A stretch of 32,000 nucleotides of DNA from Methanobacteriota archaeon (GTDB taxonomy: Archaea > JAADCQ01 > Methanopyri > Methanopyrales > Methanopyraceae). The stretch lies in contig JAMOPO010000052.1 in assembly GCA_027064425.1 (NCBI GenBank), forward strand, positions 147,010 to 179,009. Reading direction: 5' to 3'. Below the pieces are notes generated by a model. The model searched no databases. It was not told the origin of the DNA and was given only the letters and a program-made list of their open reading frames with translations. Shown in pieces: positions 59 to 21,721 of this stretch (within the stretch, counting starts at the first letter, position 1; each line of letters begins with the position of its first letter). The position numbers and the translations under genes are program-made.

Positions 59-2395
59 GTGAGAGGCGTGCTGGACGGTGATCCGACCCCGCCGGACAAG
101 ATCCTCAACCGGGTCCGGGCGGCGGGCACCGTTCTGGCGCGCGGGGACCTGGCCAAGACCGCCGAGCGACTTCTCGGCGGCAAGGTCGAGCGGGCGGAGT
201 TCTGCCGCCGTTGCCTGGCCTCGGACAAGATCACGGTCCTTGACGGCGGGTACAAGTTCGGGGACGTGCGCGTCTGCGGGGAGTGCGCCGAGGAGATCCT
301 GGAGGAGGAGCTGAGGTTCCGCGTCCCGAACTTCTCGCAGACCCTGCTGGAGCGCCTGAAGGAGCTCTTGGACCGGTTCCGCGACGTCGACCGCGTGATC
401 GAGATGGTGGACCCCTCGTTCGACCCGGCCCGCGAGGACGAGAAGACGCGGTGGGACGTGGTCGAGGCGGAGGATGAGGAAGAGGAGGAGCGCCTGCCGA
501 TCTCGAAGGTGGACGCCCCGGCCCGACTCATCAGCCTCCTGCGCGAGCTCGGGTACCGCGAGCTGACCCCGGTTCAGACCAAGTGCGTACGCGCGGGCCT
601 GCTGGAGGGCGAGAACCTGCTGGTGGTGTCTCCCACCGGGTCCGGGAAGACGCTCGTGGCCGAGCTCGCGGGCCTGACCCGGGTGCTCGAGGAAGGGAAG
701 AAGATGGTCTACCTGGTGCCCCTCGTGGCGCTGGCCAACCAGAAGTTCCGCGAGTTCCGGGAAAAGTACGGCGAGAGGCTCAACGTCGGCGTCCGACTCC
801 AGGTCGGTGCGACCAGGCTGAAGGAGTTCTCGAGACCGGAGCGGGGCCCCGACCCGGAGGAGGCGGACATCATCGTGGGGACGTACGAGGGGTTCGACCT
901 GCTCCTCCGCACCCGGGCGATCGACCCGGACGAGATCGGTGTGGTTGTGATCGATGAGGTGCACAGCTTGGCCGACGAGGACCGAGGTCCCCGGCTGGAC
1001 GGTCTTATTTGCCGCCTTAAGACCCTGACCGACGCGCAGCTACTGGGCCTGTCGGCCACGGTGGGCAACCCGGAGGAGCTCGCGGAGTACCTCGACGCGC
1101 GCCCGGTCATCCACGAGCGGAGGCCGGTACCGTTGGAGTATCACCTCGTGATCAACCAAGACCGACGGCAGAAGTGGGACCGCATCGCCCGGCTCGTGGA
1201 GGCGGAGTGGGAGACGGAGTACTCCACCGGCTACCGGGGCCAGACGATCGTCTTCACCCACTCCCGGCAGAACACGCACCGCCTGGCCGACTTCCTCCAG
1301 GAGCGGACGGGGCTGGACGTCGCCCCCTACCACGCTGGGCTGCCCTACGACCGGCGCAAGTCGACCGAGCAGGCCTTCGAGCGGGGCGAGCTGGCGGCCG
1401 TCGTCACGACCGCGGCCCTCGGCGCGGGCGTCGATTTCCCAGCCTCTCAGGTGATCTTCGAGAGCCTGGCGATGGGTGTCGAGTGGCTGACGCCCATGGA
1501 GTTCCAGCAGATGGCGGGGCGGGCTGGACGGCCCGGTTACCACGACCGGGGCAAGGTCGTCCTGATGGTGGAGCCGGGGCGCCGGTACCACTCCGGTCAA
1601 GAGGACACCGAGGACAAGGTCGCCTTCCGACTGCTCGAGTCGGAGCCGGAGCCGGTCGAGGTGGAGTACGACGATGAGGACGAGCGCGAGCAGGTGCTGG
1701 CGCACGTGGCCAGCGGCGCCGCCTCCTCCCCGGAGGAGCTCCGACGGGTCTGCTCCGAATCCTTCGGGTTCGCCGGCGACCCGGAGCGGAGGCTCAAGGA
1801 GCTTCGGGAGATGGGGTTCGTGAAGGGGTTCAAGCTGACGCGCCGGGGCCGGGTGGCCGCCCGCTACTTCGCCGGACCGCGCACGGTGCACCGGCTCGTC
1901 GAGTCCGAGCGAGAGGATCCACTGCAGGCCGTGGCCGAGGTGTGCCCGTTCGAGCGGCTGCAGCTGTCCCCCTCGATCCGGCGGGCGGTCGAGCGGGTCA
2001 CGAGGATGTCCGTGCCCGCCCGCTTCGAGGACGCCCTGGAGGTCATCCACTCCGAGCGCCGCGAGGTGCTTGAGCACCTACCCAAGAAGGAGCGTGACCG
2101 ACTGATCAAACTGATCCGAGCGGTGGACTGCGGGTGCGATGCGTTCCCGCACTGCGATCACGTGCCCGCCAAGGCCTCTGCGCTGCTGCTGAGGACGCGC
2201 TTAGAGGGTAAATCAGTCTTCGCCATGCCCAGGGAGCTGGAGCGGAGGTACGGTCTAACGGCGTACCCGACCGACGTCGCGAGCTGGCTGGAGGAGGTGA
2301 TCCGGCTCCTGGAGTGCGCGGCCGAAATCGCGGAGGAGCCGGGGATGAGGGCGGCGGCGGAGGCCCTCGCCGATCCCTGGTCTACCCGCCGCTGA
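59..2395 (+). CDS. Superfamily-2 (Ski2/Hel308-like) DEAD/DEAH-box helicase with N-terminal zinc ribbon
   Basis: 778-aa ORF. Motifs read directly: Walker A VVSPTGSGKT, DEVH box (VVIDEVHSLAD), SAT (GLSATVGN), motif VI QMAGRAGRPG, and a CxxC...CxxC ribbon (CRRC...CGEC). The frame stays open back to window position 2, so the true start may lie upstream of the window. GTG 59 and GTG 68 are the in-window candidates. Confidence 0.8.
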   Translation: MRGVLDGDPTPPDKILNRVRAAGTVLARGDLAKTAERLLGGKVERAEFCRRCLASDKITVLDGGYKFGDVRVCGECAEEILEEELRFRVPNFSQTLLERLKELLDRFRDVDRVIEMVDPSFDPAREDEKTRWDVVEAEDEEEEERLPISKVDAPARLISLLRELGYRELTPVQTKCVRAGLLEGENLLVVSPTGSGKTLVAELAGLTRVLEEGKKMVYLVPLVALANQKFREFREKYGERLNVGVRLQVGATRLKEFSRPERGPDPEEADIIVGTYEGFDLLLRTRAIDPDEIGVVVIDEVHSLADEDRGPRLDGLICRLKTLTDAQLLGLSATVGNPEELAEYLDARPVIHERRPVPLEYHLVINQDRRQKWDRIARLVEAEWETEYSTGYRGQTIVFTHSRQNTHRLADFLQERTGLDVAPYHAGLPYDRRKSTEQAFERGELAAVVTTAALGAGVDFPASQVIFESLAMGVEWLTPMEFQQMAGRAGRPGYHDRGKVVLMVEPGRRYHSGQEDTEDKVAFRLLESEPEPVEVEYDDEDEREQVLAHVASGAASSPEELRRVCSESFGFAGDPERRLKELREMGFVKGFKLTRRGRVAARYFAGPRTVHRLVESEREDPLQAVAEVCPFERLQLSPSIRRAVERVTRMSVPARFEDALEVIHSERREVLEHLPKKERDRLIKLIRAVDCGCDAFPHCDHVPAKASALLLRTRLEGKSVFAMPRELERRYGLTAYPTDVASWLEEVIRLLECAAEIAEEPGMRAAAEALADPWSTRR

Positions 2396-2741
2396 GCTCC
2401 TCGAGCGCCCGGCGCGCGAGCTCCGCCGCCTTCCTGCCCCGGACGGTTAACGCCCCCTCCACCTCCGTGCCGAGCACCGTGGCGCGAATGCGGGCCTCCA
2501 CCTCCTCCTCTCGCACCTCACCCTCAACGTCCACGGAGTATCGATCCTTCGCGTCCTTCAGCCTCACCTGGTAGGAGTCACCCTCTAGCTCGACGTCGAT
2601 CTCCGCATTCTTGACGACGTCGACGACGGCCACCACCGACTGCTCCAGCACCTGCATCGCGAGCCGCATGACGTTCTCCGGCGTCATGTACTTCTTCACC
2701 AGCTTGTCGAGCAAGGCGGTGCCCCCGGTGGTGGTACCCAT
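2382..2741 (-). CDS. Hypothetical acidic protein (119 aa)
   Basis: C-terminal 119 codons of ORF 2382..3044, from ATG (MGTTTGG...). Composition is coding-like (EIDVELEGDSYQVRLKDAKDRYSVDVEGEV). The upstream part of that ORF is an S/P/T-rich shadow of the opposite gene. No family recognised. An alternative ATG lies 54 nt further in (MTPENV...). Confidence 0.5.
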   Translation of the reverse strand: MGTTTGGTALLDKLVKKYMTPENVMRLAMQVLEQSVVAVVDVVKNAEIDVELEGDSYQVRLKDAKDRYSVDVEGEVREEEVEARIRATVLGTEVEGALTVRGRKAAELARRALEELSGG

Positions 2742-3612
2742 GTCCGGCGAGCGCCGGGAGTACCGGCTGATCCCGGTGAGGGATAAGTACTGGCGGGTAG
2801 GCTCCGGGGCGTTGAAAAACGCGTTGACGGCGCTCGAGGGGGTTGAGCTGCGGGACGGGGACGTGCTGCTGGTCTCCGAGAAGGCGGTGGCCGTGGCCGA
2901 GGGAGAGCTCATCGACGAGCGCGAGTACGAGCCCGGTCCCCTGGCCAAGCTGCTGGTGACCCTGTGGATGAGGATCGTCTGGGGGCGGATACTGGGGCCG
3001 CTGCTGGGACCGCTGATGGATCCGCCGCTGCGCGAGGAGACCATCCGGAACTTTCGACGCTATCCGAAGCGGGAGGGAGCGATGCACAAGCAGATGATCC
3101 TTGAGGAGTTCGGCCTGCTTCACGCGCTGGAGCCGGTATCGGAGGCCGGCTGCGACGTGGGGAACGTCCCGGGGTACTTCGCCGCGCCCGTCCCGGCCTC
3201 GGCCGACCGGTTCGCGCGACGCTTGAGGGAGCGGCTGCGCGAGGACCGCGGGGTGGACGTGTCCGTCGTCGTGGGAGACACCGACAAGACGTACGAGCTC
3301 TTCGGTGTACTCTTCACGACGATCGCTCGGGCGCACCCGGAGATAATCTCCGGGACGGGCGTCCTAGGGTTCCTAATCGGCCGACTCCTGGCGCGAACCC
3401 TGGGCCCGACGCCCGTCGCCATCGCGGGCGACGTGGAGGTCCGGGAGGCGATTCGGCTCCTGAAAGAGGCCGAGCGGGTCCGGACGAAGGGGGCGGGGCG
3501 CACGGTCTACGACGCGCTGGACGAGGTGGGCGACCCGGGGCGCCTCGACGAGGACTTCCTGAACAGGTTCGAGCACGTGCCGATCGTGGTGGCTCGCCCC
3601 GTCAGCCGGTGA
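2740..3612 (+). CDS. CofE-like protein (F420-0:gamma-glutamyl ligase family-like)
   Basis: Starts at the internal ATG (MSGERREYRLIPV...) of ORF 2611..3612. The N-terminal pattern LIPV...GDVLLVSEKAVAVAEGELID and the later VVVGDTDKTY resemble the CofE family as I remember it. The first 43 codons of the track ORF are T/S-rich shadow. Confidence 0.45.
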   Translation: MSGERREYRLIPVRDKYWRVGSGALKNALTALEGVELRDGDVLLVSEKAVAVAEGELIDEREYEPGPLAKLLVTLWMRIVWGRILGPLLGPLMDPPLREETIRNFRRYPKREGAMHKQMILEEFGLLHALEPVSEAGCDVGNVPGYFAAPVPASADRFARRLRERLREDRGVDVSVVVGDTDKTYELFGVLFTTIARAHPEIISGTGVLGFLIGRLLARTLGPTPVAIAGDVEVREAIRLLKEAERVRTKGAGRTVYDALDEVGDPGRLDEDFLNRFEHVPIVVARPVSR

Positions 3613-4192
3613 GCTTCAGCCCGTACTTCTCGATCTTCTCCGCGACCTTCCGTGCCGCCTTCTCCGGCTCGTCCTCGGTCTTCGCGCCCGTGCACACGGC
3701 CTTACCCGAGTAGAACAGGAGCATCGCCACGTCGGGCTCCTTGAGCCGCAGCACCAGGCCGGGGAACTGCTCGGGCTCGTACTCGATGCCCTCCACGTCC
3801 TCGTCCTCCGTGAGCACCTCCGCGATCATGTCCAGGTCCAGCGAGACGTTGAAGTCAATCGAGGCCACGATGTTCTGGATCTCGATCTCGGGCTCGCCCT
3901 CGAACTCGACCCCGCACTTCTTCTCCAGGTCCTCCCGCACCCGCTCCACGCTCTCGTAGATCTGCTCCCTGGTCTTGGCCCCGGTGCAGACCATCTTTCC
4001 GGACCGGAAGATCAGCACCACGGTGCCGATGTCCTCCAACCGGTAAACGAGGCCCGGGAACTGCTCAGGCTCGTACTCACCCTGCAGGATCACGGAGCAC
4101 TCGTCCAGGTTAACTTCACCCTTCAGATCCACCGAGGCCACGATGTTCTGGATGTCTACCTCGGGCTCGATTTCCTTCGATTCTTCCGCCAT
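3602..4192 (-). CDS. tbp: TATA-box binding protein
   Basis: Two direct repeats of the TBP fold signature: QNIVASVDL / QNIVASIDF, EPEQFPGLVYRL / EPEQFPGLVLRL, and SGKMVCTGAKT / SGKAVCTGAKT. Start taken at MAEESKE (M7 of the track ORF); an upstream ATG at 4210 is possible. Confidence 0.93.
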   Translation of the reverse strand: MAEESKEIEPEVDIQNIVASVDLKGEVNLDECSVILQGEYEPEQFPGLVYRLEDIGTVVLIFRSGKMVCTGAKTREQIYESVERVREDLEKKCGVEFEGEPEIEIQNIVASIDFNVSLDLDMIAEVLTEDEDVEGIEYEPEQFPGLVLRLKEPDVAMLLFYSGKAVCTGAKTEDEPEKAARKVAEKIEKYGLKLTG

Positions 4193-5147
4193 TGGGAGGG
4201 GACCCCCCATCGCATGGTAGTGCCGGGACCGGCTCGCCCTCCAAATACCTCAGCCCCAGCAGGCACAGCCCTCGCGCCTCGAGGTCCTCACCCGCGAAGA
4301 CGGCCACCTCGCCACCCCACAGCTCCGACACCCTCCGTTTTAAAAGTTCGTTTTTAACACCACCGCCCGAGAGCACCAGCAGGTCCGCGTCGAACCGGGA
4401 CGCGTTCCTCACGATCGTCTCCGCCACCAGCTCGGTCACCGTCCGCAGCGCGTCCTCCGGCTCCCCCTCGAACTCGGAGAGCACGGGCTTCAGCAGCCGC
4501 TCCTGCTCCGGCGGAACGACGCCTAGACTGCCCTTGACCGGGCCGAACACCGGCTGACCGTCCGCCTCCAACCCCTCCAGCCTCCGCCTCAGCCCTCCGT
4601 CCACCTCGCCCCGGGCCGCGGCCCGCCCGCCCTCGTCGTACTCCTCCCCCAGCAGCTCCCGGGCCGCCAGATCGATGGGAAAGGTGCCGGGGCACACGAC
4701 CGCCTTCCCGAAGTCCGGGTCGCCGCCCTCGATCGGCGTCACGACCGCCATCGCGCCCACGTCCACGTGCACGCAGTCCGGGTACTCCTCCGCCACGCAG
4801 TACGGCGCGCCCACGGCGTCACCGTCCGGGGCTCCCCACGGGTCCCCGTACACCGCCAGCGTGGGCACGCCCGTCCGCTCGTGGATCATCGGTCCCAGGA
4901 TCAGACCCAGCTCGTCCACGATCGTGCCCACGACGACCAGGTCCGGATCCACCTCCCGGACCCGGCGGACGACCCGGGGGGCGATCTCGCGGCGCAGCGC
5001 GCGCCGGCTCTCCTCGAGCGGGAACACGCACGAGATCTTGCCGAAGACCCCCTCCTCCCGGGCCACGATCTCCCACTCGCCCCGCTCGTTCATCAAGCAG
5101 TAGTCCGTGCCCGTGTTCCCCAGCTGAACCCCCAGCACCCGGACCAA
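4116..5147 (-). CDS. ASKHA-fold (actin/Hsp70/sugar-kinase) ATPase-like protein, possibly methanogenesis-marker-12 / AnmK-like
   Basis: Phosphate-1-like GVQLGNTGTDY, phosphate-2-like HVDVGAMAV, and adenosine motif LVLSGGGVKNELL. Start set at TTG 5147 (GTG 5138 is an alternative), because the first 38 codons of the track ORF are S/P-rich and cover the divergent promoter. The C-terminal tail overlaps tbp. Confidence 0.45.
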   Translation of the reverse strand: MVRVLGVQLGNTGTDYCLMNERGEWEIVAREEGVFGKISCVFPLEESRRALRREIAPRVVRRVREVDPDLVVVGTIVDELGLILGPMIHERTGVPTLAVYGDPWGAPDGDAVGAPYCVAEEYPDCVHVDVGAMAVVTPIEGGDPDFGKAVVCPGTFPIDLAARELLGEEYDEGGRAAARGEVDGGLRRRLEGLEADGQPVFGPVKGSLGVVPPEQERLLKPVLSEFEGEPEDALRTVTELVAETIVRNASRFDADLLVLSGGGVKNELLKRRVSELWGGEVAVFAGEDLEARGLCLLGLRYLEGEPVPALPCDGGSPPNGGRIEGNRARGRHPEHRGLGGSEG

Positions 5148-5172
5148 GCGCGCCGGCCCCCTTCCCGATGAC

Positions 5173-5182
5173 GATTTAAGAG
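5173..5182. promoter_or_regulatory. Bidirectional TATA-like box (GATTTAAGAG) between the ASKHA gene and rpl22
   Basis: This is the only AT-rich element in the 77-nt divergent spacer. It lies about 48 nt upstream of the rpl22 TTG and about 30 nt upstream of the ASKHA TTG on the other strand. Confidence 0.45.
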
Positions 5183-5224
5183 CAGTGAAACCCCGGCCGG
5201 GGTCCGGAAACGGGGGCGGATCGC

Positions 5225-5704
5225 TTGACGAGGACGAAGAAGTGGCATTACTCGATTCCACCCGAGGAGCTGGACGAGGACCGCACCGCCAAGGCCTTCA
5301 TCCGCGAGCTGAGGATCTCGCCCAAGCACGCCCGCGAGATCTGCCGGGCCATCCGCGGCAAGCCGCTCGACGAGGCCAAGGAGTTCCTGAAGCGCGTGAT
5401 CCGGAAGGAGGAGGCGGTGCCCTTCAGGAAGCACAAAAAGAAGGTTCCGCACCGCCGGCAGATCCGGCCGGGATGGGACGCCGGTAGGTTCCCGCAGAAG
5501 GCCGCGCGCGAGATCCTACGGGTCCTGGAGCACGCGGAGGCCAACGCCGAGCAGAAGGGCCTGGACACGGACCGCCTCTACATAAAGCACATAGCGGCGC
5601 ACAAGGGCCGCGTGATCCGCGGCTGGATCCCGCGAGCCTTCGGGCGAGCGACCCCGTTCAACACGCCCACCACGCACATCGAGGTGATCCTGGAGGAGCG
5701 CTAG
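5225..5704 (+). CDS. rpl22: 50S ribosomal protein L22 (uL22)
   Basis: [33 protein letters not shown] and the C-terminal [19 protein letters not shown] are typical of archaeal uL22. TTG start with a TATA-like box about 48 nt upstream. Confidence 0.9.
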
Positions 5705-5718
5705 GGGGAGCCCCCGCC

Positions 5719-6435
5719 ATGGTGATGTACGGTGAGAACGTCCCGGTGCACAAGAAGTTCGTGCAGTACGGCATGCTGAAGACCGAGCTGGACGAGTACC
5801 TGGAGAAGGAGCTGGATCGCGCCGGTTACGGCGGGATGCGGCTCCAGCGCGTGCCGAACGCGACCAAGATCATCGCGTACGTCGAGCGGCCGGCCATCGC
5901 CATCGGTCGCCGCGGGCGCAACATCCGCCGCATCGAGGAGGAGGTGCAGGAGAAGTTCCCGCTCCTGGGCCGCGTCACGATCGAGGTCAAGGAGATCCCA
6001 GTACCGGAGCTCAACCCACGCGTCGTCGCCCGCCGGCTCGCGTCCGCGATCGAGCGCGGCGTCCACTTCCGTCGTGCGGCCTACGGCGCCCTGCGTCGCA
6101 TCATGAACGCGGGTGCCAAGGGCGCGCTCATCAAGCTCTCGGGCAAGCTGATCGGCGCTCGGGCCCGGACGGAGAAGTTCATGGACGGCGTGGTCAAGTA
6201 CTGCGGCGAGCCCGGTGACGAGTACATGATCGAGGGCTACGTCCAGGCGATCACCAAGCCGGGAGCCATTGGCGTTACCGTAAAGATCATGCCACCCGAC
6301 GTGGAACTGCCGGACGAGATCGAGGTCAAGCCGCCGGAGGAGGTGGAGGACAAGCTGAAGGAGCTCGTCGGCGAAAAGGCCGAGGAGGAGAGCGAGGAGG
6401 AGAAGCCGGAGGAGTCCGAGGAGGGGGAGGAGTAG
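5719..6435 (+). CDS. rps3: 30S ribosomal protein S3 (uS3)
   Basis: KH-domain region ERPAIAIGRRGRNIRRIEEEV followed by GAKGALIKLSGKL. Acidic C-terminal tail. Lies 14 nt after rpl22. Confidence 0.93.
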   Translation: MVMYGENVPVHKKFVQYGMLKTELDEYLEKELDRAGYGGMRLQRVPNATKIIAYVERPAIAIGRRGRNIRRIEEEVQEKFPLLGRVTIEVKEIPVPELNPRVVARRLASAIERGVHFRRAAYGALRRIMNAGAKGALIKLSGKLIGARARTEKFMDGVVKYCGEPGDEYMIEGYVQAITKPGAIGVTVKIMPPDVELPDEIEVKPPEEVEDKLKELVGEKAEEESEEEKPEESEEGEE

Positions 6436-6438
6436 CCC

Positions 6439-6672
6439 ATGGGCAAGTACAAGCTGCACTCGGACGACATCCGCGAGATGTCCCCGGAGGAGCGGCGCGA
6501 GAAGCTCAAGGAGCTTAAGGCGGAGCTGCTCAAGGAGATGACCTCCAAGTCCGTCGCCGGCGTCCCGGAGAATCCCGGGAGGGTAAGAGAAATAAAGAAG
6601 AACATCGCCAGAATTCTCACGATAGAGCGCGAGGAGGAGCTTAAGAAAATCCGAGAGGCCGAAAAACGCTGA
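6439..6672 (+). CDS. rpl29: 50S ribosomal protein L29 (uL29)
   Basis: 77 aa with the typical uL29 pattern IREMSPEERREKLKELKAELLKE...PGRVREIKKNIARILT. Lies 3 nt after rps3. Confidence 0.9.
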   Translation: MGKYKLHSDDIREMSPEERREKLKELKAELLKEMTSKSVAGVPENPGRVREIKKNIARILTIEREEELKKIREAEKR

Positions 6673-6690
6673 GGGGAAGGCCCCGGAAAG

Positions 6691-7011
6691 ATGCAGGACG
6701 AAGACGTCTGCCCCGTTTGCGGACTTCCGAAGGAGCTCTGTGTTTGTGAGGAGGTCTCTAAGGAGACCGTTGAGAAGATCAAGATCTACACGGAGCAGGT
6801 CCGGCCCGGCAAGATCGTCACCATCATCGAGGGCCTCGATGACACGGACGTTGACCTCCAGGAGCTCGCGAGCAAGTTGAAGAAGGAGTGCGCCTGCGGA
6901 GGCACCGCCAAGGAGGGCAAGATCATCCTACAGGGCGATCACCGGAACAAGGTCCGGGAGTACCTGATTAAGAAGGAAGGGTTCCCGGAAGACACCATCG
7001 AGGTCTCCTAG
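6691..7011 (+). CDS. sui1: Translation initiation factor aSUI1 (eIF1 homologue)
   Basis: N-terminal CPVCG...CVC zinc knuckle followed by the SUI1 core (KIKIYTEQVRPGKIVTIIEGL...LKKECACGGTAKEGKIILQGDHRNKV). Confidence 0.9.
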   Translation: MQDEDVCPVCGLPKELCVCEEVSKETVEKIKIYTEQVRPGKIVTIIEGLDDTDVDLQELASKLKKECACGGTAKEGKIILQGDHRNKVREYLIKKEGFPEDTIEVS

Positions 7012-7736
7012 CCGGCACCGGCCCTGAGCCCGGCGATGAACACCCTCCTACCAGAGACCTCCCGCGGGAACGCCACCCCAACCTTCACCTTGAACCCCTC
7101 TTTCTCCAGGAACTTGCCCCGGATCCGGCACACGGTCAGCTGGTGACGCACCGAGTCTTCGGCCCGCTTCAGCTCGCGCTTAAGCCACTCGTACTCGCTT
7201 TCTTCTTTCACGCCGGGCCGCACCCCTAGTTCGTCTATTATCACCCTAGGGCTCGCCCGCCCGTAGCAGCACGGGACCACCAGTGCGACGCGCGCCCCGA
7301 GCTCCCGGGCCAGCTCCAGCATCCGGTCCGTTAGCGTGCCGCAGAGGTGCAGTCCGACCACGACGTCCGCCCGTTTCACGCTGATCCCGACGCGGCCCGA
7401 GACCACCTCGTGCAGGTCCCACGTCTCGAACCTCAGGTTGCTCACACCCACGGACTCCAGGTACTCCTCCAGGACCGGCCACGACTTGAACTCGCGGACG
7501 TCGAACCCCAGCACCTCGCACGAGGGACACGACAGGGCCATCGCGGCGGTCAGCGCCCCGCGACCGCACCCGGCGTCCACGATCACGTCTCCCGGCCTGA
7601 CCCACGTGCACAGGAGCTCCAGCAGCCTCCCCACCTGCTCCCGCTTACGATGGGCGTCCCGGGCCGAGCTGGGGAACGCCTCTCGAGGCAGGTACAGCCG
7701 CTCCTCCCCGTGGGGGCCACGATACTTGACCTCCAC
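7008..7736 (-). CDS. Class I SAM-dependent methyltransferase (HLCG / PCCY motif type, Trm13/METTL25-like)
   Basis: SAM-binding motif I VIVDAGCGRGALT, followed by VVGLHLCGTLTD and VVPCCYG. The 4-nt convergent overlap is with sui1, and the 5' end overlaps the Rpp29 start. Confidence 0.7.
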   Translation of the reverse strand: MEVKYRGPHGEERLYLPREAFPSSARDAHRKREQVGRLLELLCTWVRPGDVIVDAGCGRGALTAAMALSCPSCEVLGFDVREFKSWPVLEEYLESVGVSNLRFETWDLHEVVSGRVGISVKRADVVVGLHLCGTLTDRMLELARELGARVALVVPCCYGRASPRVIIDELGVRPGVKEESEYEWLKRELKRAEDSVRHQLTVCRIRGKFLEKEGFKVKVGVAFPREVSGRRVFIAGLRAGAG

Positions 7737-7980
7737 GGCTCACCCCCCGAGGCCCGAGGACCTCCTTGGCAAAAAATTCAGGGTCGTAAGGGCCCGCTCC
7801 CGGCCTCACTACGGCACCCGCGGCAGGATCCTTGGCTTCACCAGGAACTGCCTGGTCTACGGCGACCGCCGGGACCAGAAGCTCCTACCGCTCGACGGAG
7901 TCATCCTCGAGGTGGAAACCGAGGAGGGGAGGATCAGGGTGGAGGGGGACCAGCTACTCCGACTCCTTCGCGATCCTTAG
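7726..7980 (+). CDS. rnp1: RNase P protein component 1 (Rpp29/Pop4 homologue), minimal 84-aa form
   Basis: Sm-like Rpp29 core LLGKKFRVVRARSRPHYGTRGRILGFTRNCLVYG...LPLDGVILEVETEEGRIRVEGDQL. The only in-frame start candidate (ATG/GTG/TTG) upstream of the core and near the opposite-strand methyltransferase start is TTG 7726. Everything upstream in the track ORF (7336..) is shadow of the opposite methyltransferase. Confidence 0.7.
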   Translation: MTSTAHPPRPEDLLGKKFRVVRARSRPHYGTRGRILGFTRNCLVYGDRRDQKLLPLDGVILEVETEEGRIRVEGDQLLRLLRDP

Positions 7981-8712
7981 CAGCTCAATGGGTACTGGCA
8001 CGACCAGCGTGACGTTCTCCTCCGCGGACACCTCCGAGAGCGTCTGAAGCAGCCGCAGCAGCCCCGGATCCACGCCCAGCTTCTCCGCCGCCTCCTTCAG
8101 GTCCTTAGCGGCCTGGCGCTCGGCCCGGGCCTGGATGATCCTCGCCCGCCGGTCCCGCTCGGCCTCCGCCTGCCGCGCCATCGCCCGCCGCATCTCCTCC
8201 GGGAGGACGACGTCCCGGATCTCCACGTCCACGATCCTAACGCCCCAGTCCCTCGTCTTCTCGTCGATGATCTCCTTGATCCGCTCGCTCAGCTCCTCCC
8301 GCTTGGCCAGCACGTCGTCCAGCTCCACCTCGCCCAGGACCGATCGAAGGGTCGTCTGGGCCAGGTTGAACACCGCCCCCTCGTAGTCCCCCACGTTGAG
8401 CACCGCGCGGGCCGGGTCGACCACGCGGTAGTAGATCACGGCGTCCACCTTGATCGGCACGTTGTCCCTCGTGATCACCTCCTGCGGCGGGATCTCCCGG
8501 GTGATGACCCGCAGGTCCACCTTAACCAGCCGGTCGATGACCGGGATGATCAGGTTCAGCCCGGGTGGTCGCGTGCCCACGTACCTGCCCAACCGCAAGA
8601 GCACGCCGCGCTCGTACTCGTTCAACACCCTCACGGACATGGCCAGCAGGACCAGCGCCGCCCCGAGACCGACCGCCAGCCACTTCCACGGGATCGTCGC
8701 CCACGAGATCAT
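7954..8712 (-). CDS. Stomatin/prohibitin-family (SPFH, band 7) membrane protein
   Basis: N-terminal TM helix, then NEYERGVLLRLGRY...PGLNLIIPVIDRLVKVDLR...TRDNVPIKVDAVIYYRV and a coiled-coil AEAERDRRARIIQARAE. Confidence 0.9.
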   Translation of the reverse strand: MISWATIPWKWLAVGLGAALVLLAMSVRVLNEYERGVLLRLGRYVGTRPPGLNLIIPVIDRLVKVDLRVITREIPPQEVITRDNVPIKVDAVIYYRVVDPARAVLNVGDYEGAVFNLAQTTLRSVLGEVELDDVLAKREELSERIKEIIDEKTRDWGVRIVDVEIRDVVLPEEMRRAMARQAEAERDRRARIIQARAERQAAKDLKEAAEKLGVDPGLLRLLQTLSEVSAEENVTLVVPVPIELLRIAKESE

Positions 8713-18607: not shown

Positions 18608-19537
18608 TTGTACCCGCGGGGTAGAAAGGCCACCCTGGCCGCGATCCTGCGCACGATCCTGAAGGATCAGCCCTCAACGCAGAAAGAGATAGCCGAGAAG
18701 GTGGGCGTCTCGCGGCGGTACGTGACGGAGCTGCTTCAGCCGCTGATGGAGAAGGGGGCCGTTTTCCGGACGTACGCCGTCGACATGACCAAGCTCCGCC
18801 GGCACTTCCCCGAGCTGTTCGAGGAGCTCGGTCGACACATCTACGAGGACATCGAGTCGCACCTGGAGAGCGTCCGCCCCTACTTCGAGCGGATGATCGA
18901 CCTGACGGAGTCACAGGTGGAGAGCGCGATCCTGGCCATCGAGGAGGACCCGAGCCTCGCCCAGAAGATCGTGAAGATGGACGAGGAGGTCAACCGGCTG
19001 GACGAGGAGATCCGGCTGTACGTTCGAGCGCTTCCAACGTTCCACCCGTGCGAGGAGGCGGGGAAAGTCTCGACGCTCCTCCTCGAGATCTCGCACTGCA
19101 TCGAGCGGATCGGAGACTACGCGTGCAACATCGCGGAGGTGGCGGACAGGATCGGAACGCTCTCCGACCTGGGGTGCTGGGAGGAGCTCAAGGAGGCCGC
19201 GGAGCGGGCCCGGTCGATGGTCTCGACCTCGTACGACGCGTTCCTATCCCTGTCCAAGCGTCGGGTCAAGAAGGCCGCGGAGGACGTGTACCGGCAGGAG
19301 GAGCGCGTCCACGATAGCATAATAAAGGCCTGCGACGATGCGATCAAGGAAACGGAGGAGTTTCCGTCCCGCGCCCGGTACCTCTTCGCCGTGTCACGCG
19401 TGACGAAGGACGTCGAGCGCATCGCGGACAAGGCCGTCGATATCGTCGACTACACGCGAGAGCTGGTCGAGGGTCGACCGCGCGACCTGACCCCGGAGCA
19501 GGAGGTGAGGGGAACCATCCCGGCCGACACCGCGTAA
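18608..19537 (+). CDS. Winged-HTH / PhoU-domain fusion protein
   Basis: TTG start 7 nt after GGAGGTGA. N-terminal wHTH (PSTQKEIAEKVGVSRRYVTELLQPLMEKGAV). Two PhoU repeats, each with the signature E(R)IGD/IAD: MDEEVNRLDEEI...IERIGDYACNIAE and EERVHDSIIKACD...VERIADKAVDIVD. Confidence 0.7.
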   Translation: MYPRGRKATLAAILRTILKDQPSTQKEIAEKVGVSRRYVTELLQPLMEKGAVFRTYAVDMTKLRRHFPELFEELGRHIYEDIESHLESVRPYFERMIDLTESQVESAILAIEEDPSLAQKIVKMDEEVNRLDEEIRLYVRALPTFHPCEEAGKVSTLLLEISHCIERIGDYACNIAEVADRIGTLSDLGCWEELKEAAERARSMVSTSYDAFLSLSKRRVKKAAEDVYRQEERVHDSIIKACDDAIKETEEFPSRARYLFAVSRVTKDVERIADKAVDIVDYTRELVEGRPRDLTPEQEVRGTIPADTA

Positions 19538-19553
19538 GGGGGGTGCCGGGACG

Positions 19554-20279
19554 GTGCACTACGTCGGGCTGGGCGGCTTCGGATGCCGGTTCTCCTCCCA
19601 CGCTTCCAACGCCGGCTTCCGAGTGCTCGCCTGCGTCGGCTCCAAGGGTGACCTCCTGCGGGTCTCGGAGGGCAAGACCGTCGAGGTAGCACCGGACATC
19701 GGCTACAACCGCGACTGGCGTCGAGCCTCCGAGGAGCTCGCGGATCACGAGAAGGCCATGAACACGATCCGCAAGTGCCTCGAGCAGCACCTGGACGGCC
19801 CCACGCTCATGGCGTTCGGACTGGGCGGAGCAGTGGGGTTCGCGCTCGCCCGACCCTTCCTCGAGGACCCTCCCGTCCCCTTCGTCCTCCTCGTCACGAT
19901 CCCGGGCGAGTCCGAGGATCCCCAGGTCCGACGCAACGCGCGCGAGCAGGTGGACGTGGTGCTGAAGGTCTCCTCCAAGCTCCCGATCCTCTGGGTGGAC
20001 AACGATATTGGTGGAGGCTACGACCGGGTCAACCGGATGCTCGAGAAGACGCTCTCCGAGTTCCGGGAGTTCCTGAACGTCCCGGTCGAGGAGCTCCCGA
20101 ACATGGCCGGGAACTACGCGGTCTCCCCCTCCCTACCCGGCGAGCGCGTGACCGAGGAGATCGTCAAGACGAACCCCAGCGAGATCCGTCGGCTCGTGAG
20201 CGATCGGGAGCCCGAGGAGCGCGTGATCAAGGAGGAGCGGAAGGGGCCGGACCCGGACTCACTGAGGGAGCTGTTCTAG
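19554..20279 (+). CDS. FtsZ/tubulin-fold-like protein, GTPase domain only, degenerate nucleotide-binding motifs
   Basis: GTG start 16 nt after the PhoU-like stop, with a G-rich SD. Loop order and spacing follow the FtsZ N-domain: GLGGFG (T1 position), IGYNRDW (T3 position), GLGGAVGFA (T4 signature position), IPGESED (T5 position), RRNAREQVDVVL, and ILWVDND (T6 position). No C-terminal domain or T7 loop. Confidence 0.55.
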   Translation: MHYVGLGGFGCRFSSHASNAGFRVLACVGSKGDLLRVSEGKTVEVAPDIGYNRDWRRASEELADHEKAMNTIRKCLEQHLDGPTLMAFGLGGAVGFALARPFLEDPPVPFVLLVTIPGESEDPQVRRNAREQVDVVLKVSSKLPILWVDNDIGGGYDRVNRMLEKTLSEFREFLNVPVEELPNMAGNYAVSPSLPGERVTEEIVKTNPSEIRRLVSDREPEERVIKEERKGPDPDSLRELF

Positions 20280-20292
20280 GGGGCGGCCTCCG

Positions 20293-20520
20293 ATGACTCG
20301 GAAGGCCAGGGTCACGCTCACGCTCTCAGAGGACGCCCTGGCCCGGGTCCTGGCGGCCAAGGACGCGCTGGAGGGGGAGAGCATCTCCTCCACGGTCGGC
20401 AAGCTGGTGAAGTTCGGGTTCGCCTACCTACGAGAGAAGTTCCCCGAGCTCTTCGAAGGCATCGACCTGGAGGAGTACCGCCACAAGGCCCGAGAGCGCT
20501 GGTTCAGCGAGCGGTCATAA
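20293..20520 (+). CDS. Ribbon-helix-helix (CopG/MetJ-like) small DNA-binding protein
   Basis: 75 aa. The N-terminal strand-helix pattern KARVTLTLSEDALARVLAAKD is typical of RHH. Lies 13 nt after the FtsZ-like gene. Confidence 0.5.
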   Translation: MTRKARVTLTLSEDALARVLAAKDALEGESISSTVGKLVKFGFAYLREKFPELFEGIDLEEYRHKARERWFSERS

Positions 20521-20557: not shown

Positions 20558-21721
20558 ATGGAGGTTCCCTCGGGCTTCCTGCTTGGCGGCGTGAAGCGGG
20601 ACGTAGGCGTGGGCCTGCTGTTCTCCGAGACCAGGTGCTCGGTCGCGGGCGTATTCACGCGGAACACCCTCCGCGCCGCTCCCGTCGAATACTCCGAGGA
20701 GGTGTGCTCCCGCGGGCGCGCCCGTGGAGTGATCGTCAACAGTGGCCACGCGAACGCTCTCACCGGCGAGGAGGGGATGCAGGACGTCCTCCGGATGGCC
20801 GACGGCGCCTCACGGCTGTTCGGGGTGCCCGACGACGAGGTTCTAGTGTGCTCGACCGGAGTCATCGGCGAGCGGCCGCCCGTGGACAGGATCCTGAAGC
20901 TGGCCGAGGAGGTCTGGGAGTCCCGGATGGGGTCCGATCCGGAGCACGTCCGCGCCTTCAACGAGGCCATCATGACGACGGACACTCGGGAGAAGGTCTC
21001 GTCGTACTCCGGCGGCGACTGGTGCCTCCTCGGGGTGGCGAAGGGCGCCGGCATGATCCACCCGCGGATGTCGACCATGCTGGCCTTCCTGATCACGGAC
21101 GTCCGGGCCGCGTCCCACGATCTCCAGCCCGTGCTGCGAGACGCCGTCGAGGACACGTTCAACATGATCAGCGTGGACGCCGACGAGAGCACCAACGACA
21201 CCGTCCTCCTGATGGCCAACGGGGCGTCCGGGCTCGAGGTGGGCAGGGACGTGCCGGAGTCTGAGTTCGAGAAGGCCGTGAGGAAGGTGTGCGAGGACTT
21301 GGCCCGGGAGATCGCTCGGGACGGTGAGGGATCGACCAAGCTCCTGGAGGTGGAGGTGCGCGGGGCTCGGTCCCGGAAGGAGGCCAGAAGGGCTGCCAGG
21401 GCGGTGGTCTCCTCCAACCTGGTGAAGGCCGCCCTCTTCGGCGAGGACCCGAACTGGGGGAGGGTGGGCGCGGCGATCGGCGCCGCGCGGGTCGATGTCG
21501 ACCCGAGCTCCCTCAAGATCATCTTCGAAAGCTCGGAGGGAAGGGTGGTAACCTACGACGGCGGTCCCGTCAAGTTCGATGAGGAGGAGGCGGCGCGGAT
21601 TTTATCCGACCGAGAGGTCCGGATCGTGGTGGACCTGGGAGTGGGTGACGAGTCCGCCCGCGCCTGGGGGTGCGACCTGACCTACGATTACGTCAAGATA
21701 AATGCCGAGTACCGCACGTGA
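20558..21721 (+). CDS. argJ: Bifunctional ornithine acetyltransferase / N-acetylglutamate synthase ArgJ
   Basis: [24 protein letters not shown], and [23 protein letters not shown] (the autoprocessing site region). C-terminal [16 protein letters not shown]. Confidence 0.92.

Follow-up and report, generated by a model that had tools for sequence, protein, structure and literature searches.

The window (the whole 32-kb stretch of DNA analysed here) contains a tightly packed string of genes, in which an open reading frame for a short FtsZ-like protein, here called mini-FtsZ, lies between a gene for a PhoU-domain protein and a gene for a putative ribbon-helix-helix (RHH) protein (Table 1). In Pfam, the upstream product matches PhoU (E value of 1.5e-27) and HTH_24 (2e-8); its gene has the same place in the Methanopyrus orthologue locus (L001), and this synteny is limited to Methanopyrus. 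The Shine-Dalgarno-like sequence GGGGGGTG found before mini-FtsZ also precedes the TTG start of the orthologue at L001. The open reading frame is real and is held by purifying selection, with a dN/dS of 0.19 against that orthologue.

Table 1. Features of the mini-FtsZ locus (positions refer to the window)
Feature	Position	Strand	Description
Upstream gene	18608..19537	+	309 aa; winged HTH and two PhoU domains; same tight gene string
Palindrome GGAAAC-N6-GTTTCC	19348..19365	+	Within the upstream gene; tentative candidate RHH site
Shine-Dalgarno-like sequence GGGGGGTG	19538..19545	+	8 nt 5' of the GTG start; abuts the stop codon of the upstream gene
mini-FtsZ gene	19554..20279	+	241 aa, GTG start; predicted FtsZ/tubulin nucleotide-binding domain, helix H7, T7 remnant, acidic linker, and C-terminal peptide
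mini-FtsZ residues 1-175	19554..20078	+	Predicted S1-H1 ... S6-H7 core, from the AF2 model, invariant columns, and hhalign
mini-FtsZ residues 176-200	20079..20153	+	Short conserved post-H7 segment; invariant N183-x-A185
mini-FtsZ residues 201-241	20154..20276	+	Charged, low-confidence linker; conserved end peptide DPDSLRELF
RHH partner gene	20293..20520	+	75 aa; starts 14 nt past the mini-FtsZ stop

A sequence-only reading of this DNA had proposed an N-terminal domain of the FtsZ/tubulin fold, and the motif positions that it listed are all correct: GLGGFG at residues 5 to 10, ACVGSKGD at 26 to 33, IGYNRDW at 49 to 55, GLGGAVGFA at 89 to 97, VTIPGESED at 114 to 122, RRNAREQVDVVL at 126 to 137, and ILWVDND at 145 to 151. 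The loops of the core read T1 GLGGFG, T2-like VGSxxD, T3-like GYNRD, T4 GLGGAVG, T5 PGESE, and T6 VDND. The profile and structure searches recommended there were run, and the proposed fold is borne out by the AF2 model, Foldseek, and hhalign. From the single sequence, AF2 gave an unusable model (pLDDT of 40), and the family alignment was needed; the model built from the 11-sequence family alignment has a pLDDT of 71.5 and a pTM of 0.73, with a pLDDT of 80 to 90 across residues 1 to 150, and its elements follow the S1-H1 to S6-H7 order that defines the superfamily fold. Foldseek searches of the PDB with this model returned 199 matches with E values of ≤1e-3, and FtsZ, TubZ, PhuZ, and CetZ structures make up the whole top 50 (best E value, 1.4e-7; range, 1e-7 to 1e-5). 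In BFVD, phage tubulins fill the whole top 10, followed by a steep fall. An hhalign comparison of the family profile with an eight-sequence FtsZ profile (probability, 87%; E value, 3.7e-6) pairs residues 3 to 136 with residues 15 to 153 of E. coli FtsZ, with T1, T2, T3, T4, T5, and H5 collinear and the T5 glutamate E119 aligned to FtsZ E138; against E. coli FtsZ alone the match is marginal (E value of 0.056), and significance needed the eight-sequence profile.

Searched against PDB sequences, the family profile has an archaeal FtsZ1 as its top match (E value of 0.016), and neither phmmer nor HMM profiles placed the window protein. No Pfam or NCBIfam family matches the window protein, and the Pfam Tubulin family (PF00091) is approached by 2 of the 11 family members, among them the M. 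kandleri-type orthologue, at a score below threshold (E value of 0.028; 15.1 bits against a cutoff of 33). The tubulin T4 signature is [SAG]-G-G-T-G-[SA]-G in PROSITE; residues 89 to 95 read GLGGAVG and the family consensus is G-L-G-G-A-V-G, with Val for Thr in most members. Could the motifs be chance likenesses in a protein without the tubulin fold, such as a degenerate fragment of an ABC-type ATPase or some generic Rossmann protein? The lack of Pfam and NCBIfam matches would fit, and so would a weak phmmer match in the PDB to the ABC transporter ATPase 3d31_A (E value of 0.0018) over the signature/Walker-B region. However, the best Foldseek matches are all tubulin/FtsZ and the hhalign match keeps T1 to T5 collinear, which makes such a protein extremely improbable. 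The 3d31 identity was itself dropped, since Walker A is absent, the match is lost once family profiles are used, and the fold search disagrees with it. Judging from the predicted model and the profile alignment, the gene encodes a genuine, much diverged member of the FtsZ/tubulin superfamily that has kept the nucleotide-binding half. This fold-level call is not new, since the M. kandleri AV19 orthologue (AAM02076.1/Q8TX16) has long been annotated as "FtsZ GTPase involved in cell division." In line with the sequence-only reading, which could not assign it to a known minimal FtsZ-like family by eye, the protein fits none of FtsZ1/2, CetZ, TubZ, and FtsZl1/2.

The T1 to T5 loops line the nucleotide pocket of FtsZ. 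The 18 invariant residues of the family alignment (G7, G8, G10, G29, S30, D33, G50, R53, D54, G89, G92, A93, G95, A97, A99, E119, N183, and A185) fall almost wholly in these loops and in N-x-A, a likely trace of T7. Because the invariant residues are concentrated in pocket-lining loops, the pocket looks maintained, if re-tooled, and the degeneracy and poor nucleotide binding suggested in the sequence-only reading are not supported by the alignment. The predicted absence of a C-terminal domain is confirmed: about 65 residues follow H7, mostly charged and modeled with low confidence (pLDDT below 50 for residues 189 to 232 of the AF2 model), and Pfam gives no FtsZ_C match. The claim that T7 is missing stands for the canonical NxDxxD, replaced by N183-M-A-G-N-Y in the window protein, but fails for the site as a whole, where N-x-A is invariant family-wide and some relatives keep the second Asp (N-x-A-x-x-D). 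A relaxed hhalign alignment of low confidence places N183 on FtsZ N207 and A185 on D209, and residues 176 to 200 are likely what is left of the T7 loop and H8. The description "GTPase domain only" falls short as well, as a conserved C-terminal peptide follows behind the acidic linker. Across the family, the tails consist of acidic runs and then end in PWDIF, PLDFL, TDII, or LRELF; the terminal peptides (e.g., DPDSLRELF and DSPWDIF) lack GID and resemble NEDQLDDFIDGIF of M. smithii FtsZ in composition only.

The family consists of roughly 11 clusters and is restricted to Methanopyri. Word-indexed searches, exhaustive phmmer, and scans of genomes, metagenomes, and viruses found no relatives outside Methanopyri and related MAGs, nor did tblastn against PLSDB and phages. 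Paired members are only 21 to 35% identical to one another. A number of relatives were found on short contigs, among many genes that have no known relatives and beside genes for PCNA, MCM, and Hjc. PHROGs gave nothing informative for 20 neighbour proteins of three loci (L007, L010, and L012), and no PHROG, IMG/VR, plasmid, or phage match supports a mobile-element nature of the short contigs. PADLOC had no match for mini-FtsZ or its RHH partner, and literature searches by accession, by locus tag, and for a TubZ/RHH system in archaea yielded no description.

The survey of orthologues and gene neighbourhoods that the sequence-only reading had called for revealed a conserved RHH gene directly downstream of mini-FtsZ, 10 to 25 nt away, at 10 of the 12 distinct loci; two subfamilies (P0018-type and P0024-type) are without an RHH neighbour. 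A profile made from seven such downstream proteins matches CopG (1b01/2cpg) over positions 4 to 41 (E value of 7e-4), and individual members match RHH_3 (5e-5), RHH_5, and RHH_1 in Pfam, with no Pfam match for the window copy itself. At this marginal profile level, the partner is a predicted ribbon-helix-helix DNA-binding protein, and it carries an extension of 40 to 50 aa past the RHH domain. The window copy is 89% identical to that of L001, with a dN/dS of 0.07. The near-constant pairing of mini-FtsZ and RHH suggests a compact DNA-positioning module, undescribed in archaea so far. A different reading would make mini-FtsZ a nucleotide-dependent switch or enzyme that does not polymerise and serves an unrelated function, retaining only a tubulin-type Rossmann-like fold, with the RHH protein as a local regulator. 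The loss of the canonical bottom interface and of the catalytic T7 Asp residues, the new invariant T3 residues R53 and D54, and the subfamilies without RHH all agree with it, but a conserved disordered linker with a docking peptide is typical of cytoskeletal or partition NTPases rather than of enzymes, and the RHH pairing is close and widely conserved. We regard this reading as decidedly unlikely.

Repeat arrays accompany the gene pair in some relatives. L007 and L017 have about eight 11-nt iterons beside a TATA-like box, 50 to 150 nt upstream of the start codon, and L012 has eight 72-nt direct repeats upstream, with an inverted array at the opposite contig end. No repeat array lies beside the cassette of the window or of L001, where both pairs belong to a string of closely packed chromosomal genes. 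The palindrome GGAAAC-N6-GTTTCC is the sole match in the 32 kb, with 0.05 expected; it recurs at the orthologous site in L001 and, with one mismatch, makes up the core of the L012 72-nt repeats. Lying in coding sequence, it could reflect coding constraint or could be coincidence. One 20-nt exact IMG/VR match to a repeat sequence (L034) falls in single-copy, coding-like DNA and was judged a chance match. The conserved RHH partner and the repeat arrays of relatives, both missed in the sequence-only reading, move the likeliest role from the FtsZ-filament cap considered there to a DNA-linked module.

A two-gene operon spread patchily over chromosomes and mobile-looking contigs is also what a toxin-antitoxin-like or addiction pair would look like, with mini-FtsZ as an effector that arrests growth, perhaps by poisoning FtsZ, and the RHH protein as an autoregulating antitoxin on upstream operator repeats. 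The RelB-like antitoxin family of NCBIfam matches 4 of the 7 RHH partners weakly (E value of 6.5e-4), although such matches reflect the shared RHH fold; the post-RHH extension is antitoxin-like, and the repeats overlap a promoter-like TATA box, consistent with autoregulation, although eight-copy arrays of 72 nt would be unusual as operators. Moreover, mini-FtsZ is much bigger than typical toxins, no toxin fold was found, PADLOC is empty for both partners, and in Methanopyrus the pair keeps a stable synteny and is held by purifying selection. Taken together, we find an addiction pair improbable.

Compared with TubZ/TubR/tubC and PhuZ, the module has in common a tubulin/FtsZ-fold NTPase (with PhiKZ TubZ/PhuZ, c-st TubZ, and Bacillus TubZ among the best Foldseek matches), a flexible C-terminal tail, an adjacent gene for a small DNA-binding partner, some mobile-looking contexts, and, in some relatives, iterated repeats by the operon (8 × 11 nt in L007 and L017 and 8 × 72 nt in L012, against one palindrome in the window and L001). 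The C-terminal tail of TubZ contacts the TubR-DNA complex. In one report, this flexible tail is needed for assembly dynamics (PMC5322520). Unlike TubZ, mini-FtsZ lacks the C-terminal domain and the NxDxxD of T7, has GLGGAVG in place of GGGTGSG, is restricted to Methanopyri, and shows no detectable sequence similarity; its partner is an RHH protein encoded downstream, whereas TubR is a winged HTH protein. The gene order, NTPase and then RHH, is that of ParM/ParR/parC, and the direct repeats of about 11 bp beside the promoter in L007 and L017 recall parC of plasmid R1, an array of about 11-bp direct repeats beside its promoter. The NTPase is of the tubulin and not the actin fold, however, and the window cassette has no adjacent repeats. 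FtsZl1 and FtsZl2 likewise have highly diverged FtsZ-like N-domains, and FtsZl1 lacks recognisable elements distal to H5 as well as the C-terminal domain (PMC2875224). FtsZl1 differs in having an extended coiled coil, an alpha-helical C-terminal domain, and a membrane-remodelling gene context, in a paper in which Methanopyrus is unmentioned (PMC2875224), whereas mini-FtsZ has 241 aa, a short charged tail, and no Tubulin_2-type Pfam match. CetZ is another archaeal tubulin-superfamily paralogue, with 3zid and 4b46 among the top Foldseek matches, but has a full C-terminal domain and canonical signatures.

Canonical archaeal FtsZ1 and FtsZ2 have a homologous nucleotide-binding domain, and the acidic linker and peptide of mini-FtsZ are reminiscent of their SepF-binding CTD; mini-FtsZ is about 130 aa shorter, lacks FtsZ_C and the "GID" CTD motif, and stays under the Pfam Tubulin threshold. 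A systematic survey (PMC8178401) records a single FtsZ entry for M. kandleri (AAM02034.1), along with SepF and an FtsA-like protein, and leaves the orthologue of the window protein, AAM02076.1, off its FtsZ list. The division machinery of Methanopyrales is unusual in having a single FtsZ, SepF, and an FtsA-like protein. Archaeal ftsZ2 has a conserved neighbour in the RHH gene cdrS, which one survey names "parD" (PMC7439475, PMC9871819, PMC8178401). The mini-FtsZ pair resembles cdrS-ftsZ2 in that an RHH gene is the immediate neighbour (PMC7439475, PMC9871819), but here it lies downstream of a truncated, unclassifiable paralogue, and not upstream of a full-length ftsZ2 with which it is co-transcribed, as cdrS is.

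These parallels lead to the view of mini-FtsZ as a modulator of cell division. A half-FtsZ with an intact nucleotide ("top") face and no proper bottom face would cap or poison filaments of the sole canonical FtsZ of Methanopyrus or compete for SepF through its FtsZ-CTD-like tail, the RHH protein would be a CdrS/aCcr1-like cell-cycle regulator of the pair, and mobile copies would manipulate host division. The cdrS-ftsZ2 neighbourhood is a precedent, as is the reported control of Sulfolobales division by viral RHH homologues (PMC9976878); the survey lists for M. kandleri a single FtsZ with an FtsA-like protein and SepF, the acidic run followed by a hydrophobic-D/E-hydrophobic-hydrophobic tail resembles the SepF-binding NEDQLDDFIDGIF, and the window copy is chromosomal without a repeat array. 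On the other hand, the gene order is opposite to that of cdrS-ftsZ2, the tail likeness is compositional, the upstream arrays in two lineages exceed the needs of a simple operator, and the invariant T1 to T5 pocket with N-x-A suggests an activity of its own, beyond a decoy surface. We consider a role in modulating division possible though doubtful.

Our best explanation, put forward tentatively and at less than an even chance, is that a tubulin-fold NTPase and an RHH adaptor position or partition DNA. The reduced protein, consisting of a nucleotide-binding domain, H7, vestigial T7/H8, an acidic flexible linker, and a C-terminal docking peptide, would act with the RHH protein as a two-gene module. 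The RHH dimer would sit on repeated DNA sites, the iteron arrays in relatives and, in the window genome, perhaps the candidate palindrome about 200 nt upstream. Nucleotide-bound mini-FtsZ would then self-associate through its intact "top" and reduced "bottom" faces, and its C-terminal peptide would tie it either to the RHH protein on its DNA or to an anchor in the membrane, for instance SepF. The whole would amount to a compact counterpart of TubZ/TubR/tubC and ParM/ParR/parC, and the chromosomal copy of Methanopyrus may be a domesticated version. The analysis shows the fold, the family, its purifying selection, the gene pairing, the arrays of two lineages, and, at a marginal profile level, the RHH nature of the partner; from these we infer nucleotide binding, self-assembly, contact between the RHH protein and the tail, and the DNA-positioning role. 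Head-to-tail polymerisation of the canonical type, with hydrolysis, is doubtful for a protein that has neither a C-terminal domain nor the catalytic aspartates of T7. Several observations weigh against a partition model: the cassettes of the window and L001 have no flanking array, the RHH gene lies downstream and not upstream like tubR, its product has a fold unlike that of TubR, two subfamilies have no RHH neighbour, and the short contigs have no PHROG, IMG/VR, plasmid, or phage matches that would mark them as mobile elements. CdrS-type RHH proteins adjoining ftsZ2 are transcription factors and not centromere binders (PMC7439475). The more far-reaching proposal, that a single-domain half-tubulin, an RHH adaptor, and centromere-like arrays form an unrecognised tubulin-based segregation system of archaea, carried on Methanopyri mobile elements and domesticated on the Methanopyrus chromosome, is speculative and unlikely.

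To our knowledge, all characterised cytoskeletal proteins of the FtsZ/tubulin family have two domains. The C-terminal domain provides the T7 loop that completes the active site of the neighbouring subunit. A conserved family under selection that retains only one half raises the question of whether the nucleotide-binding half can assemble or signal alone and how hydrolysis is triggered. Our literature searches found no paper on DNA partition of the TubZ/PhuZ type in Archaea. If the partition module is real, the combination of a tubulin-fold NTPase, an RHH protein, and repeats would extend tubulin-based partition to archaea and join the type II and type III designs, and a true segregation system would mean that the FtsZ/tubulin N-domain alone can be a cytomotive or switch module. 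If FtsZ or SepF is the target instead, the Methanopyrales, with their pseudomurein walls, would have in mini-FtsZ a natural, genetically encoded modulator of FtsZ. Either way, neither current annotation describes this family well: the AV19 orthologue is called "cell division protein FtsZ," and relatives elsewhere are called "hypothetical protein."

The mini-FtsZ gene, found solely in Methanopyrus and related Methanopyri, is real and under selection: its product is 65 to 67% identical to the ortholog at L001, the orthologous Methanopyrus locus (dN/dS 0.19), and the upstream wHTH-PhoU gene has a dN/dS of 0.12 over the same pair. The window has a G+C content of 67%, and the Shine-Dalgarno-like GGGGGGTG element also precedes the TTG start of the L001 ortholog. 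Homolog searches recovered a small family, consisting of the window protein, P0002 (a cluster of Methanopyrus proteins with 65% identity to it), and about nine remoter clusters of 230 to 335 aa from Methanopyri metagenome-assembled genomes and hydrothermal metagenomes; identity among members is as low as 21 to 35%. P0002 includes M. kandleri AV19 AAM02076.1/Q8TX16, named "FtsZ GTPase involved in cell division" at its source, so the fold assignment is already known from the AV19 GenBank annotation. In member P0022 (335 aa), the conserved part begins at M85 (MKVVVCAGGCG...), probably the true start, and the N-terminal extension in the database probably reflects a mis-called start.

Features of the mini-FtsZ cassette and of loci carrying family relatives
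Locus	Feature	Position	Strand	Details
Window	Mini-FtsZ ORF	19554-20279	+	GTG start, 241 aa
Window	Shine-Dalgarno-like GGGGGGTG	8 nt 5' of mini-FtsZ start		Right behind stop codon of preceding gene
Window	RHH partner gene	20293-20520		75 aa; begins 14 nt past mini-FtsZ stop codon
Window	AT-rich island ATAGCATAATAAAGG	19314-19328		Inside wHTH-PhoU gene, ~230 nt 5' of mini-FtsZ start
Window	GGAAAC-N6-GTTTCC	19348-19365		Within wHTH-PhoU gene, 206 nt 5' of mini-FtsZ start
Window	Overlap of ArgJ and next ORF	21670-21721		52 nt as listed; ORF 437 aa, unannotated
L001	GGAAAC-N6-GTTTCC	4797-4814		Orthologous site
L007 and close relative L017	About eight 11-nt iterons (CGGGYNGAG..), then TATA-like TTTTAATAT	50-150 nt before start codon		
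L012	Eight 72-nt direct repeats	230-800 nt 5' of probable true start (M85 in called protein)		
L012	Second, inverted 72-nt array	6278-7175		Near far end of 7.5-kb contig
L012	N-terminal extension of called P0022	1279-1530		84 residues, reaching into repeat array
L012	17-nt palindrome TCATCACGGAGTGATGA	590-5852		Nine sites (<=3 mismatches)
L012	42-nt tandem units	2970-3061, 5033-5119		TCATCACGGAGTGATGA palindrome inside
L004	23S rRNA gene	472-3517		Upstream of mini-FtsZ copy, 1.5 kb away
L004	P0017-type locus, RHH and helicase genes	5763-8140		RHH stop codon overlaps start of 704-aa Hel308/Ski2-like helicase gene
L002	tRNA-Val gene	4807-4883		Immediately 5' of RHH-less P0018-type member
L008	P0024-type member and neighbors	340-4808		Adjoins MCM helicase gene, Hjc resolvase gene, 1.2-kb non-coding repeat stretch
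L008	70-nt x 2.9 repeat	3436-3634		With GTTTCC...GGAAAC, in the 1.2-kb stretch

Pfam and NCBIfam searches with the window protein gave no match, and phmmer against PDB sequences returned a weak ABC-ATPase as its sole match. Single-sequence AlphaFold prediction was unusable (pLDDT 40), and an alignment of 11 family sequences was needed; the resulting model (pLDDT 71.5, pTM 0.73; residues 1 to 150 at pLDDT 80 to 90) follows the element order of the FtsZ N-domain as far as the long helix H7 (residues 152 to 174). Foldseek against the PDB yielded 199 matches at E <=1e-3, the top 50 all being FtsZ, TubZ, PhuZ, or CetZ and the best being PhiKZ TubZ (3zbp; E 1.4e-7, TM 0.57), and in BFVD phage tubulins account for all ten significant matches, after which the scores drop steeply. 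Comparison by hhalign of the family with an FtsZ profile of eight sequences (E. coli and plasmid-borne ftsZ genes, one copy haloarchaeal) places residues 3 to 136 on FtsZ 15 to 153 (Prob 87%, E 3.7e-6), and the top match of the family profile among PDB sequences is archaeal FtsZ1 (9v7v; E 0.016). The agreement of these searches makes a predicted FtsZ/tubulin fold well supported. The ABC-ATPase identity is rejected, since Foldseek, hhalign, and family-profile results all point to FtsZ/tubulin, and a protein lacking the tubulin fold altogether is hardly credible. The sequence-only reading had aligned seven motifs with FtsZ loops by eye: all seven positions check out, T1 to T5 and H5 fall in identical register in hhalign, and the structure model groups the protein with FtsZ, TubZ, PhuZ, and CetZ, in line with the FtsZ-fold N-domain that this reading predicted; of its proposed profile check, the direct Pfam match failed and the profile-profile match to FtsZ held. 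At the level of modeled fold and profile, mini-FtsZ belongs to the FtsZ/tubulin superfamily, but the traits that define FtsZ proper, TubZ, CetZ, and FtsZl1 are lacking, namely the signature motif, the C-terminal domain, the T7 loop, and the architecture or gene context of those families. No description of the truncated family, its RHH partner, or the repeat arrays was found in the searchable literature.

As had been claimed, the entire C-terminal domain and the catalytic NxDxxD of T7 are missing, and T4 reads GLGGAVG instead of the tubulin signature GGGTGSG. Eighteen positions are invariant across the family alignment (G7, G8, G10; G29, S30, D33; G50, R53, D54; G89, G92, A93, G95, A97, A99; E119; N183, A185), and all except N183 and A185 lie in loops lining the nucleotide pocket of FtsZ, with E119 on the T5 glutamate (E. 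coli E138) in hhalign. Since these residues are retained despite identities of only 21 to 35%, the pocket has the pattern of a maintained rather than a decaying site, and we do not endorse the earlier suggestion that the protein binds nucleotide poorly. A nucleotide switch unrelated to the functions considered below is unlikely. N183-x-A185 comes shortly after H7, and relaxed hhalign places these residues, at low confidence, on E. coli N207, the asparagine of T7, and on D209; the motif at this position is N-M-A-G-N-Y in the window, and N-x-A-x-x-D is kept in some relatives. The last ~40 residues are charged (model pLDDT below 50). At their very end is a conserved short peptide, which reads DPDSLRELF in the window and DSPWDIF, DPWSLL, DPLDFL, or LTDII in relatives. 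Taken together, the missing and present parts suggest an architecture of N-domain, H7, vestigial T7/H8, flexible acidic linker, and putative docking peptide.

The key new fact about the surroundings of mini-FtsZ is a conserved partner gene. Ten distinct loci (window, L001, L004/5, L006/13, L016, L018, L007, L017, L010/11, and L012) carry a small gene (75 to 111 aa) at this position, and seven of the ten downstream proteins are mutually alignable; a profile built from the seven hits CopG, an RHH repressor, over positions 4 to 41 (E 7e-4), and single members match Pfam RHH_3, RHH_5, and RHH_1 and the NCBIfam RelB-like antitoxin model. A toxin-antitoxin-like pair is nevertheless quite improbable. 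Between the window and L001, the RHH protein is 89% identical (dN/dS 0.07), whereas mini-FtsZ is far less conserved. Two subfamilies are RHH-less: the P0018 type, next to a tRNA-Val gene, and the P0024 type, whose neighbors are MCM and Hjc.

The genomic settings vary. Nearly all genes on the short contigs L007, L010, and L012 are without a match in Pfam or PHROG. A PCNA gene is present on L010, and genes for MCM and Hjc on L008. These four contigs look like putative mobile elements; no relatives were found in IMG/VR, phage, or plasmid collections. The L008 repeat stretch may be where replication starts in an element that is either integrated or extrachromosomal, and the tRNA-Val gene may indicate an integration site. 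For other copies a chromosomal location is clear. The L004 copy, 1.5 kb from the 23S rRNA gene on contigs as long as 383 kb, is possibly in an operon with the DNA helicase. The window copy belongs to a tightly packed gene string syntenic with L001 (TFB, Gar1, ferredoxin-like gene, 134-aa ORF, wHTH-PhoU, mini-FtsZ, RHH); ArgJ follows in the window, and L001 stops shortly past the RHH gene. The ORF after ArgJ probably starts further downstream than listed.

Repeat arrays precede the mini-FtsZ/RHH pair in two lineages (L007/L017 and L012), and L012 as a whole resembles a small replicon rich in repeats. No array was found in the flanks of the window cassette. The palindrome GGAAAC-N6-GTTTCC occurs once in the 32 kb (0.05 expected) and lies, one mismatch aside, at the core of the L012 72-nt repeats; the window RHH likewise shows its greatest similarity to the L012 RHH (35%). 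Judged from sequence, the palindrome is either a candidate RHH site or a chance product of coding constraint. The ATAGCATAATAAAGG island (L001 counterpart, AAAAATATAATCA) contains rare ATA Ile codons despite the 67% G+C genome and may be an internal archaeal promoter of the pair.

We tentatively propose that mini-FtsZ and RHH form a DNA-positioning or partition-like module, in which an RHH dimer would tag repeated DNA sites. The half-tubulin, with nucleotide bound, would self-associate, and its terminal peptide would link it either to DNA-bound RHH or to an anchor in the membrane, a logic shared with TubZ/TubR/tubC and ParM/ParR/parC. Somewhat doubtful is the main rival, in which mini-FtsZ would modulate the division machinery of its host. 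The RHH regulator CdrS is a typical companion of archaeal ftsZ2 (PMC7439475; PMC9871819; PMC8178401), an intact top face with an absent bottom face would make a plausible filament cap, and the tail resembles the SepF-binding FtsZ peptide NEDQLDDFIDGIF by composition; Methanopyrus has one surveyed FtsZ, plus SepF and an FtsA-like protein (PMC8178401). Under the partition-like reading, a single-domain half-tubulin might conceivably, if rather improbably, underlie a system for tubulin-based segregation of DNA in Archaea.
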